Shown one piece after another: positions 26,699 to 34,689 of a stretch of 64,000 bases of DNA. The notes under the pieces are model-generated. The model searched no databases. It was not told the origin of the DNA and was given only the letters and a program-made list of their open reading frames with translations. A program made the translations under genes and the position numbers. Origin of the DNA: an uncultured Gammaproteobacteria bacterium (lineage in GTDB: Bacteria; Pseudomonadota; Gammaproteobacteria; Steroidobacterales; Rariloculaceae); contig OY969712.1 in the NCBI GenBank assembly GCA_963702105.1, positions 1,796,312 to 1,860,311 on the forward strand. The letters are read 5' to 3'. Within the stretch, counting starts at the first letter, position 1. Each line of letters opens with the position of its first letter.

Positions 26699-26719
26699 AT
26701 CCTACGAAGGACGACTCCG

Positions 26720-27199
26720 ATGAGCGCACAAAAGACGGAACTCGTTAGTTCGACTGATGGTCCCGACGCCTCCATCGCCAATGGAGTCACGGGGACCCTC
26801 GTTGGCTTCACGGCCGATTCATCCGTTCCGTTGGTCACCTTCAGTGGGCAATTCGGGACGGCGGCCGTCGCTGCCCGCTCCACCGTCGACCTTTTCGGCG
26901 GGCACATAGGTCGGGAAGTCCTTTTGGTGTGCGAGCGTGGGGATCCGCGTTTACCGATCGTGGTGGGCGTCCTTGGCGGAACCGTGTCCGCGGGGATGCC
27001 GGAGATACCTCCGCACGTAGAGCTCGACGCGGATGGCGCTCGACTTGTCGTCAAAGCATCCGAGCAAATCGTGCTCAGATGCGGGAAGGCTAGCATCACC
27101 CTGACGAAGGCCGGGAAGGTGCTTCTTGAGGGAACATACGTCCTAAGCCGTTCCTCGGGGGTTAATCGCATTAGGGGCGGCTCCGTCCAGATCAATTAG
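26720..27199 (+). CDS. Small VgrG-tip-like OB/beta-prism protein (recalls PA0096-type / DUF6484-like proteins)
   Basis: 159 aa. The middle REVLLVCERGDPRLPIVVGVL resembles the gp5 OB motif (compare EVIVDFIEGDPDRPIVTGRV in the VgrG here). The tail CGKASITLTKAGKVLLEGTYVLSRSSGVNRIRGGSVQIN parallels the VgrG tail GSASISMKEDGTIEIKGKNISIDGSGKINVKA..KGSKIHQN. Confidence 0.55.
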   Translation: MSAQKTELVSSTDGPDASIANGVTGTLVGFTADSSVPLVTFSGQFGTAAVAARSTVDLFGGHIGREVLLVCERGDPRLPIVVGVLGGTVSAGMPEIPPHVELDADGARLVVKASEQIVLRCGKASITLTKAGKVLLEGTYVLSRSSGVNRIRGGSVQIN

Positions 27200-27231
27200 T
27201 ATGAGTTCTGGAATCGGATCGAGAGGGAGAC

Positions 27232-28041
27232 ATGCCACTAACGGTCTATGCCGAAGGCCTAGGTCTTTTTCATAAGGGCAGCAATGGGACTGGAGTGGCG
27301 GCCGGGGACGTATGCCTGTCGCCTCCGCCTCCGCCCACCGGCCCCGTGCCTGTTCCTTACGTCAACATGGTCCAAGCGTCAGATCTGGCGGATGGCAGCA
27401 AGAAAGTCACCATTGACGGCGAACCGACTGCGCTGTCCGATAAATCGAGTATCGCTACAAGCACCGGCGATGAGGCGGGCACTCAAGGCGGCAATGTCAT
27501 CACGCACAAGACAAAAGGTAAGGCGTATTTCGCCACGTGGTCCATGACCGTCACAGTTGAAGGGGAGGGCGTGTGTCGCCATAGCGATCTGCTGGGCCAG
27601 AACTGCGCGTCCAAGCCGTTTGGAATTATCGATCCTTCGGCCATTACGCGGATTTTGCCCAGCATACCGCCGAGCAAGCTGGGACAGCCGTGTCCCCCTG
27701 GGAAGGAGGAAGCGCCTGCGACCAAGACGAACACGGCTCAACGCGAGTCGGTTCGCGGTGGTCCATGCTGGTCGTGTGGGGCCACCGTGAATAAGGGGGT
27801 ATACAAGTCGGGGCGCGCGTTCAACAAAAAGGACCGCTTCGTTGCCGATCATCAGCCACCGCAGTCCGCAGTGTGGGCCATGGGTGGGTGCCACGACGAA
27901 AAAGCGTTCAACCAGTGGAAGCAGTCTACCGATGCCGTCGTGCCCCATTGTACGACGTGTTCGAACTCGCAGGGCACTGTGATGCGCGGTGCCCAGGGGA
28001 AAAGCGTGCTCGAGTATCTGGCTTTGGCGTGGCCAGGCTAA
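27232..28041 (+). CDS. PAAR-like (DUF4150) protein with C-terminal zinc-finger HNH nuclease-type toxin domain
   Basis: N-terminus FHKGSNGTGVAAGDVCLSPPPPPTGPVPVPYVNMVQASDLADGSKKVTIDG...STGDEAGTQGG is the DUF4150 pattern. The C-terminus has CWSCG (27766-27777) ... ADHQPP (DH at 27847-27852) ... GG ... N ... HCTTCSN (27946-27960), i.e. CxxC..DH..N..HCxxC. RBS GAGGGAG. Confidence 0.8.
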   Translation: MPLTVYAEGLGLFHKGSNGTGVAAGDVCLSPPPPPTGPVPVPYVNMVQASDLADGSKKVTIDGEPTALSDKSSIATSTGDEAGTQGGNVITHKTKGKAYFATWSMTVTVEGEGVCRHSDLLGQNCASKPFGIIDPSAITRILPSIPPSKLGQPCPPGKEEAPATKTNTAQRESVRGGPCWSCGATVNKGVYKSGRAFNKKDRFVADHQPPQSAVWAMGGCHDEKAFNQWKQSTDAVVPHCTTCSNSQGTVMRGAQGKSVLEYLALAWPG

Positions 28042-28063
28042 CAGCGGACTGTCAGGGCTTGTC

Positions 28064-28507
28064 ATGGATCCGTATCGTGAGCTCTTCGAGGAGTATGTCA
28101 CCGAGCTGGCCGTCGCTCGAAATGCTGCTTTGGACTGGTGGCGCGAGCTCACGGCCCGTGAGGCGGCGAAATTCGGAAGTGCCGAGTCGGCCGAGCTCGC
28201 CCTCAAACAACGCTGGCCGATGGGACCGACGGCGCATCCCAGAGTCATCGCGGTCTACCGCAAGTACTATTTGGCAGTCGACGAGATCAACCGAAGTATT
28301 ATTGATGATGAAGGGGAGTCTTTTACCTCGCATCCGCTTGACGACTCAGCGTGGCAACCGGACGCTGACGGCGAGGAGGACTGGATTCAGCACCCACGGG
28401 TCGTGCTCTACGAGCGTCTGGATGAGGTTGATGTGGGGCTCGCGCGCTTCATGGACGCCTTTGTCTTTATTCCCATCGGGATGGATTCGGAAGGCCGTTT
28501 GAAATGA
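28064..28507 (+). CDS. Candidate immunity protein 1 (paralog of next gene)
   Basis: ATG 28064 is in frame within track ORF 27989..28507 and lies 23 nt after the toxin stop. 147 aa, acidic, no signal peptide. Shares the blocks LF..YV, WW..L, P.GP.A.P.V..V.R.Y.L....INR and PIG.D..G with the next ORF. Confidence 0.5.
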   Translation: MDPYRELFEEYVTELAVARNAALDWWRELTAREAAKFGSAESAELALKQRWPMGPTAHPRVIAVYRKYYLAVDEINRSIIDDEGESFTSHPLDDSAWQPDADGEEDWIQHPRVVLYERLDEVDVGLARFMDAFVFIPIGMDSEGRLK

Positions 28508-33037: not shown

Positions 33038-33047
33038 CGACGAGACC

Positions 33048-34310
33048 GTGCTCACCGCATCAGACAGCCCTTCACTGCATCTCGAGCGCCATATGGAAGA
33101 CGCGGCGTTTCTCTGGAGCGTCCGTGATGCAGCCGTGGGAGATAACGAGTACGCGCTAGAGGATCTCGCGCTGCTCGACTATCGCATTGAGGCGCACTTG
33201 GATGGATTGCGAGTTGCCGGTCCGAGGGCGTGGGAACGCTGCCTGGCGGCTCTCGATTCAGTCGACCCGGGAAGAGCGTTCAACGCAGCTGTCCTGGCGC
33301 TCTCGAGTGACGACGGCGGACGGTTGGCTCAACTCCTCGACATTGCGAGCCAAGCGCGAGGCCTGTTGGGGGCCACGTCTTCCGCTTTCGGTTGGGTCGA
33401 GGCGAATGACGCGAAGCGTTGGCTTCAGCCGATGCTAAGGGCGCGGGCGCCGATATATCGGGAATTGGGAATTAGGGGTTTCGCCATGCATCGCATCGAT
33501 CCGGGCCCAGGATTGACGGCGCTCTGTGCGGACTCCGACGGGCTCACGCTCATGAGAGCGCTGCGAACCGTCGGCGAGCTCCGACGCCGCGATCTAGTCG
33601 GCGTCCTACGTGCACAGTTCTCTTGCGATTGGCTGGAACTTCGGTCATGGGCGCTTTGGTCTGCGGTGTTGATCGGTGATGCATCGGCGTTGCCGCCGCT
33701 CGCAGAGCTCATCCGTGATGCTCCGTCGCTCTCGTGTCCGCATGCAATGCAACTGGCCTTCCGCGCCATGGATCTCGCGCATGCTCGACATGTCATCAAG
33801 GCGCTCGCTCAGGATCGGGCGCGGCTTCCGGACGCCGTCACAGGCTGCGGCATCTCGGCGGACCCACTTTACATTCCGTGGCTCATGGGGCTTATGTCAG
33901 ATCCTGAGCTCGCTCGGAAGGCCGGCGAAGCCTTTTGCATGATCACGGGAGTGAATCTCCGGAGCGATGGCCTTGCTGGAGACCCGCCGAGAAGCGTCGA
34001 CCCCGGAGTGCTCGAAGACGACGACGGCGCAGGTCGTCCCGGTAGCTCCGACGCTGACCTCGATTGGCCGAATCCGCGGCTCGTTCGCGAATGGTGGGAG
34101 CTGCATTCGGGCCATTATCGTCAGGGGACGCGCTACCTCGCGGGGGGCCGCGTAGACCGGGACCATTGCTTGCGTATTCTCAAAGAGGGTTACCAAAAAC
34201 AGCGTGCCGGAGCTGCTTACGAGCTGGCGTTGATCGATGGGGAAGCGCCGCTCTTCGAGTGGCGAGCGCCAGGGTTCAGACAACGGCGGATCCTCGGGCT
34301 CGGCGCTTGA
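33048..34310 (+). CDS. TIGR02270-type helical (HEAT-like) repeat protein, paralog B
   Basis: 420 aa. GTG lies 11 nt after the preceding stop. Paralogous blocks as listed for 31131..32423. Confidence 0.7.
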   Translation: MLTASDSPSLHLERHMEDAAFLWSVRDAAVGDNEYALEDLALLDYRIEAHLDGLRVAGPRAWERCLAALDSVDPGRAFNAAVLALSSDDGGRLAQLLDIASQARGLLGATSSAFGWVEANDAKRWLQPMLRARAPIYRELGIRGFAMHRIDPGPGLTALCADSDGLTLMRALRTVGELRRRDLVGVLRAQFSCDWLELRSWALWSAVLIGDASALPPLAELIRDAPSLSCPHAMQLAFRAMDLAHARHVIKALAQDRARLPDAVTGCGISADPLYIPWLMGLMSDPELARKAGEAFCMITGVNLRSDGLAGDPPRSVDPGVLEDDDGAGRPGSSDADLDWPNPRLVREWWELHSGHYRQGTRYLAGGRVDRDHCLRILKEGYQKQRAGAAYELALIDGEAPLFEWRAPGFRQRRILGLGA

Positions 34311-34367
34311 CGACGTGTCTTTGGCGTCTTGGCGTTTGGAGCTGCGCGGCCGCCAGGAGGTGGATTG

Positions 34368-34538
34368 GTGAAGATTCCGGGGGCCGGCGTCATTCTTCTC
34401 GCCATCGCTGCGCTGCTCGTCGCGTTTGCCATACGAGGCTACGTCCGCGAGGGTCGTTTGATGCCTCAACACAAGACCTGGTTGATGATTGCAGCGATCT
34501 TCGTCGTCGTATCTATCGCTTCGTCGCTGATGAGATAG
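34368..34538 (+). CDS. Small (56 aa) two-TM membrane protein
   Basis: GTG 34368 lies 6 nt after AGGAGG. VKIPGAGVILLAIAALLVAFAIRGY...WLMIAAIFVVVSIASSLMR gives two hydrophobic helices. It is the last ORF of the low-GC island. Confidence 0.4.
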   Translation: MKIPGAGVILLAIAALLVAFAIRGYVREGRLMPQHKTWLMIAAIFVVVSIASSLMR

Positions 34539-34689
34539 CGGCATGCGGTCGGCGAGTGGCTGGATCGGATCAGCCTCTGAGTGGTTTACTACGATCCCGA
34601 ACAGAACTCGAATCGAACAGCCTGGCTCGCAAGGCTAGGTCAAGACGGCTATCATTGGCGCCACGGGGGGCAGCGCAGTATCGGGGGCC

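Follow-up and report, generated by a model that had tools for sequence, protein, structure and literature searches.

A lower-GC Class II Tvp module between vgrG and tagH of an H1-like type VI secretion cluster, and its probable origin by replacement of the slot content

How did a block of visibly AT-richer genes come to lie between vgrG and tagH of a GC-rich type VI secretion system (T6SS) cluster, and what do these genes encode? The block occupies positions 26699–34689 of the window, i.e., the whole 64,000-nucleotide stretch analysed here, which derives from an uncultured gammaproteobacterium and holds a complete H1-like T6SS cluster, with tssA, tssB, tssC, hcp, tagJ/ImpE, tssE, tssF, tssG, clpV, and vgrG upstream of the block, and tagH, tssJ, tssK, tssL-tssM, tagF-PP2C, and a gene for a PpkA-type kinase downstream. 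In order from vgrG, the block encodes a DUF6484 protein (TvpC), an effector with a PIPY (DUF4150) domain, two candidate immunity proteins, a DUF2169 protein (TvpA), a ketosynthase-like (KS-like) protein of the PRK06147 type (TvpD), a TIGR02270 protein (copy a), a DUF922 protein, a second TIGR02270 protein (copy b), and a 56-aa peptide with two hydrophobic helices (two-transmembrane, 2-TM). Homologous loci are referred to by labels (L002, L090, and so on). Direct observations on composition, gene families, synteny in relatives, and discordant protein identities make it quite probable that the stretch represents a module of the Class II Tvp type (DUF2169 synteny type A) belonging to the H1-like T6SS, in which the entire slot content has been replaced from one or more donors of lower GC content.

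Composition of the block and its borders

The sequence-only reading of this DNA had described the sequence between vgrG and tagH as AT-richer, and sliding GC, GC at third codon positions (GC3), and k-mer profiles all establish that the difference is real. In 1-kb windows, bulk GC is 0.59–0.65 over 24001–35000 and mostly 0.64–0.73 elsewhere, and the break seen by codon position is narrower and sharper than this dip. With initial gene coordinates, GC3 is 0.61–0.71 in every gene within 26720–34538; with refined coordinates, the 11 genes of the block have a mean of 0.673 ± 0.022 (range 0.64–0.71, maximum 0.710), compared with 0.856 ± 0.033 for the 30 other genes of the window (0.779 lowest, 0.92 highest). 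The two ranges do not overlap (Mann–Whitney p = 1.3e-6, 11 versus 30 genes), and the whole 11-gene block lies about 0.18 below the core, the flanking core genes having values of 0.92 (clpV), 0.87 (vgrG), 0.83 (tagH), and 0.87 (tssK). Tetranucleotide usage differs as well, the L1 distance from the remainder of the window being approximately doubled, at 0.28–0.29 for the 4-kb chunks covering 24–32 kb versus 0.13–0.18 elsewhere.

Both borders are well defined. The left anchor vgrG (TssI; 24488–26698, + strand; TIGR03361, E 2.8e-204; Phage_GPD, E 5e-110) encodes a protein with 78% amino-acid identity to VgrG of L002, and has a GC1 of 0.58 and a core-like GC3 of 0.87 (0.874), which places it outside the foreign block; that the bulk-GC dip already starts within vgrG is thus explained by amino-acid composition. 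GC3 is 0.84 in the final 300 nt of vgrG and 0.69 in the gene from 26720, i.e., the left edge is sharp and lies no more than a few tens of nucleotides from the vgrG stop (26698), which in turn is 21 nt upstream of the first module gene. On the right side, homology to relatives restarts at 34625–34647 (blastn against L001 and L002), inside the segment 34539–34689 that comprises the right junction and the tagH leader and precedes the right anchor tagH (34690–36306, + strand), a forkhead-associated (FHA) protein gene (TIGR03354, E 1.2e-99) with core-like GC3. The limits 26699 and 34689 proposed earlier are therefore correct to about 60 nt. Two other parts of the window, 53600–54200 and 63000–64000, are also low in GC (~0.60–0.62), with small open reading frames (ORFs) of reduced GC3.

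The vgrG–tagH slot in relatives

Relatives were found with TagH as anchor in one genome per species, and then by tracing homologues of the proteins encoded in the block. A homologous module occupies the same vgrG–tagH slot in every close relative recovered (L002, L004, L087, L088/L001, L091, L092, and L089), whereas in the more distant systems L008 and L009 the junction is empty or contains vgrG only. The slot is situated at the 3' end of the tssA...clpV-vgrG operon and is followed by the tagH-tssJKLM operon, a position equivalent to that of the vgrG-linked cargo beside the Pseudomonas H1-T6SS; in Pseudomonas, the two T6SS operons are divergent. The slot is thus where VgrG cargo normally resides, and it is ancestral in this lineage. 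The block had previously been taken for an island inserted into the T6SS core and splitting it. This does not hold, since the relatives fill the same slot, at the junction of two canonical operons, which argues for replacement in a standing hypervariable slot and not for insertion.

The close relatives differ in what the slot contains. L002 (TssK 93% and the ClpV C-terminus 95% identical) has the order vgrG-DUF6484-DUF2169-KS-PIPY toxin-two ORFs-TIGR02270-peptide-tagH, and L091 and L092 (a Steroidobacteraceae metagenome-assembled genome, with a Tse7-like PIPY-GHH2 effector) show an L002-like order with DUF922 and the peptide in addition. The variant in L087 has a stand-alone PIPY protein, Imm11, and Imm49, and in L088 and L001 the order TIGR02270-DUF922-peptide-tagH is found. 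The modules of L002, L087, L004, L091, and L092 all comprise vgrG, DUF6484, DUF2169, KS-like, a PIPY protein or effector, immunity genes, and TIGR02270, followed by tagH; DUF922 is missing in L002 and L004, and the small peptide in L004 alone. The canonical order DUF6484-DUF2169-thiolase-DUF4150 effector-immunity is kept in L002, L091, and L092, but not in the window, where it is DUF6484-effector-imm-imm-DUF2169-thiolase. The earlier description of the module as reordered consequently applies relative to P. aeruginosa, but the arrangement is not unique, as the order toxin-imm-imm-DUF2169-KS is also present in L090 and L082.

Replacement of the slot content

The protein identities are discordant between the block and its flanks. 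Compared with L002, core proteins are 78–95% identical, whereas the proteins of the block are 40–53% identical (DUF6484 48%, DUF2169 40%, PIPY domain 40%, TIGR02270b 53%), with 70% for the small peptide; at the DNA level, the flanks are 85–87% identical and the block is essentially unalignable. These gene families are not low in GC3 as such, because the same genes in L087, L088, L001, L091, and L092 have GC3 values within ~0.1 of their own cores. In addition, TagH is a mosaic, with an N-terminal FHA domain that is 88% identical to L087 and 72% to L002, and a C-terminus that is 93% identical to L002, from which it is evident that the slot lies in a region of active recombination. The same is seen in the DNA, where identity to L002 is 0.61–0.72 in the 5' part of tagH and 0.84–0.91 in the 3' part. 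Within vgrG, sliding identity against L002 gave no clear step that would mark a breakpoint (0.68–0.85 throughout).

No integrase or transposase families were found among the ORFs (Pfam, NCBIfam), there are 0 tRNA genes in the whole window, and the search for flanking direct or inverted repeats gave nothing beyond chance matches and the periodicity of the VgrG β-prism. The sequence-only reading had likewise seen no integrase, transposase, or flanking repeat, and had proposed acquisition through recombination of effector cassettes, for which the present data provide support. Given this absence of integrase, tRNA, and flanking repeats, the best reading is that the slot content was replaced xenologously by homologous recombination in the conserved flanks. 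In such an event, vgrG and tagH would have been spared while the whole content of the slot was exchanged for alleles from one or more lower-GC donors with the same type of cluster, presumably with no mobile-element machinery involved. The locus would then exemplify T6SS diversification in which vertical descent of the machinery and the VgrG spike is combined with exchange, in a fixed slot downstream of vgrG, of the whole module for loading and toxin, and would indicate that such exchange works even across large differences in GC content. This is ordinary T6SS effector-cassette biology, and does not overturn the current understanding.

Several points weigh against this interpretation. Effector-proximal genes lie below core GC3 in several relatives as well (0.67–0.75 versus 0.82–0.85 in L002; also L004, L033, and L082), which implies that the signal partly reflects a trait common to cargo of this kind. 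No donor was found, the nearest non-self homologue of TvpA being 55% identical and the nearest toxin 79%. DUF922 (72–78% identical to L001, L087, and L088) and the 2-TM peptide (63–76%) are conserved to an extent comparable with core proteins (TssJ 72%, TagH ~60%), and the right part may therefore derive from a closer relative, through more than one event. As for function, the HNH assignment of the toxin domain is composed of motifs and weak fold matches (E 0.3–1), with no Pfam HNH match above noise. If an apparent frameshift in tvpD is real, the module might also be disabled or non-functional, by analogy with the pef operon of Proteus mirabilis, in which every gene is required for T6SS killing (PMC11883445).

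A composite origin from at least two events appears rather unlikely. The left cassette (tvpC-toxin-imm-imm-tvpA-tvpD) would in this case come from a distant donor, and the right part from the slot versions of two relatives, with TIGR02270a-DUF922 joined to TIGR02270b-peptide. L090 and L082 share the order of the left cassette. The right part has the look of two arrangements joined together, as TIGR02270a-DUF922 is arranged as in L087, L088, L091, and L092, and TIGR02270b together with the peptide is closest to TIGR02270-p71 of L002 (53% and 70%). The two TIGR02270 copies are merely 34% identical to each other, and DUF922 is 72–78% identical to its counterparts in relatives, as opposed to 34–48% for the accessory proteins of the left cassette. 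However, GC3 is uniform over all 11 genes (0.64–0.71), for which a single donor, or a composite already formed in the donor, is the simplest explanation, and neither a scar nor a repeat marks an internal junction.

Vertical inheritance of a native module, with a GC3 lowered by relaxed selection, low expression, or ongoing decay, is improbable. The frameshift in tvpD would agree with decay, and the GC3 of cargo genes is slightly under the core in several relatives. On the other hand, 10 of 11 frames are intact with the family motifs conserved, and a neutral drift of ~0.2 in GC3 would have ruined both. Homologous genes are also near core GC3 in L087, L088, L001, L091, and L092, the block is far more diverged from L002 than the core is, and the nearest relative of the toxin is found in a low-GC organism.

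The possibility that a low-GC block from another organism in the metagenome was mis-joined in assembly deserves mention because the source contig (5.45 Mb) is metagenome-derived and the window contains three indel-like anomalies (tvpD, katG, and the tssL-tssM fusion). Nevertheless, a chimeric join is very unlikely, since independent contigs of run ERR11571143 span the left junction (L081, corresponding to 26078–30753) and the right one (L086, corresponding to 30762–36180), each with 1 mismatch, and the block fits its flanks in function, strand, and operon spacing. The exact window proteins toxin, TIGR02270a, and TssK were found in short contigs of this run; exact-protein look-ups of TagH and TssC gave no match. 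Insertion of a classical integrative mobile element or genomic island into the vgrG–tagH junction, as the atypical composition and sharp borders might suggest, is largely refuted by the lack of integrase or transposase ORFs, tRNAs, and flanking repeats beyond chance, and by the homologous genes that occupy the slot in all relatives.

Gene content and relation to Class II Tvp systems

The gene list given by the sequence-only reading was confirmed with Pfam and NCBIfam, and so was its likening of the block to the P. aeruginosa vgrG1b cluster (PA0095–PA0101), as the same families are present (DUF6484, DUF2169, PRK06147-like, DUF4150 effector, and TIGR02270). Two features had not been recognised, i.e., that the ketosynthase-like gene is split by a frameshift, and that the two immunity genes are paralogous. 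All module genes are on the + strand, with spacings from 4-nt overlaps to 57-nt gaps, and a scan for promoters and terminators in the module gave no signal beyond shuffled expectation; the module reads as one operon running on from vgrG. PADLOC identified no defence system among the proteins of the block.

The first gene, tvpC (26720–27199; PF20093, E 3.6e-19, 69.6 bits with a cut-off of 27.6), encodes a DUF6484 mini-VgrG of 159 aa with an OB fold and a short β-prism tip, the N-terminal part of which aligns with the OB domain, and the C-terminal part with the tip, of the neighbouring VgrG. It is followed by the effector gene (27232–28041; 269 aa; PF13665, E 1.1e-29, 103 bits with a cut-off of 31), in which the PIPY/DUF4150 (PAAR-like) domain precedes a C-terminal Zn-finger HNH-like domain (residues ~131–260), and by candidate immunity genes 1 (28064–28507, 147 aa) and 2 (28523–29014, 163 aa), both also called as genes in L081. 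The product of tvpA (29023–30096, also a gene call in L081) is a 357-aa single-domain DUF2169 protein with a full-length match to PF09937 (E 2.1e-81, 273.9 bits, cut-off 25), and is a candidate PIPY chaperone. Directly downstream, tvpD (30093–31143; NF004798) spans two frames and corresponds to the PRK06147, thiolase-like (ketosynthase-like) adaptor. The remaining genes encode TIGR02270a (31131–32423; 430 aa; TIGR02270, E 4.4e-87, 292.8 bits with a cut-off of 206.8; HEAT_2), the zincin-like DUF922 protein with an HExxH motif (32429–33037; 202 aa; PF06037, E 1.4e-16; gene call in L086), TIGR02270b (33093–34310; 405–420 aa, with an alternative GTG start at 33048; TIGR02270, E 4e-88, 296.2 bits), and the 56-aa 2-TM peptide (34368–34538, identified from its translation and alignment). 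Both TIGR02270 proteins are of the HEAT/armadillo-repeat type. They share the 34% identity noted above, while TIGR02270b is 53% identical to the sole TIGR02270 protein of L002. Together with DUF922 and the 2-TM peptide, they form an additional accessory or cargo set conserved in the lineage.

The DUF2169 synteny type A defined by Sachar et al. 2025 (PMC11883445) combines DUF6484 and DUF2169 with a thiolase-like protein, a DUF4150 ("PIPY") effector, and a protein with armadillo-like repeats; these authors also reported that DUF2169 chaperones the PIPY cone onto VgrG. In the nomenclature of Monlezun et al. 2026, TvpC is DUF6484 (a mini-VgrG for the pre-complex), TvpA is DUF2169, and TvpD is PRK06147; the type of Class II is PA0095–PA0101 of P. 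aeruginosa, which encodes VgrG1b, PA0096/TvpC, PA0097/TvpA, PA0098/TvpD, Tse7, Tsi7, and PA0101. PA0099, composed of DUF4150 and Tox-GHH2, is a VgrG1b-dependent toxin (Hachani et al. 2014). The window module shares with this cluster VgrG, DUF6484, DUF2169, a PRK06147-like gene (here split over two frames), a DUF4150/PIPY effector with a C-terminus of putative nuclease type, immunity, and a TIGR02270/armadillo-like protein, and in both cases there is linkage to an H1-type T6SS with TagJ, Fha/TagH, and PpkA/PppA. The differences are that in the window tvpC and tvpA are separated by the effector and its immunity genes, that its toxin domain is not Tox-GHH2, that it has two paralogous immunity genes, two TIGR02270 genes, and an additional DUF922 and 2-TM peptide, that its tvpD is frameshifted, and that vgrG and tagH flank the module in a tandem arrangement of operons.

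Other known systems are more distant. The pef operon of Proteus mirabilis (synteny type A, with PefD as toxin and PefE as immunity protein) is similarly a VgrG-linked multi-gene operon with DUF6484, DUF2169, thiolase-like, DUF4150, and armadillo-like genes, a likeness drawn from gene families alone; toxin domain and gene order are presumably different. In Agrobacterium tumefaciens VgrG2-Tap2(DUF2169)-Tde2 (Class I) and Serratia marcescens VgrG1-TvpAB/TvpB/TvpC-Paar1 (Class III), as would be the case here, a DUF2169 chaperone serves to stabilise a DUF4150 cone on VgrG. Unlike the window module, which has both kinds, Class I has neither TvpC nor TvpD, and Class III uses DUF3540 and pentapeptide-repeat proteins where the window has DUF6484 and a PRK06147-like protein. 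Because of the combination of DUF6484 with a PRK06147-like gene, the window module is assigned to Class II.

The closest likeness in gene order is to a set of toxin-first contigs (L090 and L082–L085) with the arrangement [DUF6484]-PIPY-toxin-imm-imm-DUF2169-KS-like-TIGR02270, in which toxin (72–79%) and immunity proteins (41–53%) are similar to those of the window. The hosts are unrelated (VgrG ~45% identical), and neither DUF922 nor a second TIGR02270 gene is present in the sequence covered. A further rearrangement of the same parts is seen in L082 (10001–17828), where the toxin cassette is placed after tagF, with the cognate vgrG-DUF6484-TIGR02270 in inverted orientation downstream. The window module is thus a new member of Class II Tvp, with a recurring, undescribed toxin-first order and an unclassified toxin domain, and adds an uncultured lineage to these recently defined systems. 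The toxin-first order recurs in unrelated organisms. With their unclassified HNH-like toxin domain and conserved pair of paralogous immunity genes, these modules might represent a distinct sub-class of Class II Tvp, which we propose tentatively and consider somewhat doubtful.

Based on homology to work on Serratia, Pseudomonas, and Vibrio, a loading pathway can be outlined. TvpA and TvpD would keep the PIPY cone of the effector soluble, and the cone would be pre-assembled on the mini-VgrG TvpC. From there, the effector would pass to the tip of the VgrG encoded upstream, to be fired into neighbouring cells, where its C-terminal Zn-finger HNH-like domain most likely cleaves nucleic acid, while the two paralogous downstream genes would shield the producer.

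Toxin domain and immunity proteins

The PIPY signature of the effector is PVPVPY, with P40, P42, and Y43 invariant in 46 homologues. A search of the PDB by sequence matched the PIPY half alone, to the T6SS Rhs protein 8qjc. In a model of the full-length effector the PIPY half was poor (pLDDT, the predicted local distance difference test score, ~30) and gave only weak matches to Cap5, and the toxin domain was therefore re-modelled alone, with a pLDDT of 88. Six of the nine best fold matches of this model in the PDB are HNH nucleases, among them EcoKMcrA, Cap5 of CBASS (cyclic-oligonucleotide-based anti-phage signalling system), the HNH endonuclease of phage GVE2, and PacI, with weak scores (E 0.3–5.6, TM-score 0.2–0.4). 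The invariant motifs of the domain are CWxC, DH(Q)PP (D206-H207), GGC, and C..CS..Q (C240..C243..Q247). From these motifs and the model, we infer that the toxin domain is a Zn-dependent HNH/EndoVII-like nuclease, probably neutralised by one or both of the paralogous immunity proteins.

Assignment to a curated HNH toxin family is more difficult. The window toxin domain has no Pfam match to Tox-GHH2, GH-E, AHH, or others, and a GH-E match was obtained at E 0.11 in just two of 22 toxin homologues. An identity with Tox-GHH2 was rejected, as hhalign found no similarity to the Tox-GHH2 effector of L092. In an exhaustive profile search, the domain was recovered in 93 clusters at 50% identity, nearly always at the C-terminus and also on Rhs/SpvB-type proteins, as expected for a polymorphic toxin module. 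Full-length homologues occur in Paraburkholderia, Caballeronia, Mesorhizobium, Variovorax, Myxococcus, and Planctomycetota, and often share contigs with homologues of the window DUF2169 (e.g., in Paraburkholderia and Planctomycetota). This is accordingly a widespread PIPY-linked toxin domain without a curated family. The nearest homologue, 79% identical, is in L090, which has a GC content of ~46% and a VgrG 45% identical to that of the window, and the second nearest, 72% identical, is in L082.

Neither candidate immunity gene has a family match. The two are paralogues with 34% identity, and the pair is kept behind the toxin in L082–L085 and L090 (41–53% identical). In L082 and L090, the counterparts of immunity gene 1 are 41–50% identical, and those of immunity gene 2 46–53%.

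DUF922 and the 2-TM peptide

Both genes had been viewed as accessory genes of the island, but they are conserved in the lineage and are not island-specific cargo. The DUF922 protein matches PF06037 with 61.4 bits (cut-off 27), and its HExxH motif is intact, with H138, E139, and H142 invariant together with E148/E149 in 18 homologues. A zincin fold has been predicted for DUF922 in the literature; a search of the PDB by sequence gave no meaningful match. DUF922 is situated in the vgrG–tagH slot in all seven contexts, one to three small ORFs upstream of tagH, and in each of the seven DUF922 and the peptide lie between the TIGR02270 gene (in L089, the PIPY gene) and tagH. The peptide is located between DUF922 and tagH wherever the sequence spans that part. 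Alignment of the 56-aa peptide with its counterparts in L087, L088, L091, L092, and L002 shows invariant R27, P33, and T37-W38-L39. In L002 the peptide is kept and DUF922 is absent.

A separate arrangement is present in L089 (10001–11255), where a Class III Tvp module (DUF2169-pentapeptide, DUF3540) occupies the same slot and is followed by two tandem DUF922 genes. As DUF922 here stands beside a Class III module, its linkage is to the slot and to tagH, and not to any single class of Tvp.

The two genes are consistent neighbours of tagH and seemingly unstudied, a search of the accessible literature for T6SS work on DUF922 and the 2-TM peptide having found none. We suggest, with considerable reserve, that they form an undescribed T6SS-dedicated pair of this H1-like lineage. 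The predicted features could be those of an effector metallopeptidase paired with a small immunity protein in the membrane, or else of an assembly factor; the former would agree with the retention of the peptide without DUF922 in L002, as expected for an orphan immunity gene.

The tvpD frameshift and other indel-type anomalies

In tvpD, positions 6–220 of NF004798 match the frame of 30093 (E 1.4e-32) and positions 234–337 the frame of 30730 (E 1.2e-19), the two half-matches scoring 113 and 71 bits against an equivalog cut-off of 342 in NCBIfam. Alignment with the intact genes of L002 and L082 places the apparent frameshift at ~30754–30770. Of the two ERR11571143 contigs, L081 ends at 30753 and L086 starts at 30762, i.e., they are 8 nt apart in exactly the interval of the frame change, and the sequence at the frameshift site is therefore without independent support. 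The break suggests read-level disagreement or strain heterogeneity at this site. Programmed frameshifting in tvpD was considered and rejected, as the homologues are single ORFs and two further window genes have similar indel-type breaks.

One of these is katG (catalase-peroxidase), which is split at ~54990 into overlapping frames at 54409–55035 and 54905–56626, with an N-terminal ORF of 208 aa and a 573-aa ORF that covers model positions 167–724; the gene is either a pseudogene or affected by an assembly indel. The other is tssL-tssM, which forms a single ORF of 1626 aa (38160–43040) with DotU at residues 34–236 and IcmF at residues 456–1624. With exactly 442 + 1185 − 1 residues, the fused protein equals in length the products of the two overlapping L002 genes less one residue, and the fusion is a 1-nt indel, either real or an assembly error. 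With three anomalies of this type (tvpD, katG, and tssL-tssM), indel errors of long-read metagenome assembly are a serious possibility.

Other features of the cluster

A small conserved gene without family (24141–24428, 95 aa) lies between clpV and vgrG. Its product is 86% identical to a 95-aa ORF in the same place in L087, and at the DNA level the identity is 87% with L002 and 68% with the Woeseiaceae locus L033. At 43045–44508, TagF is fused to a PP2C phosphatase (PppA-like), as is also the case in L088 and L089. Directly downstream of the T6SS kinase gene, the segment 46216–53098 contains three genes, for a Sel1-repeat/caspase (Peptidase_C14) protein, an autotransporter β-domain protein, and a 1165-aa PKD-domain protein, all with core-like GC3.

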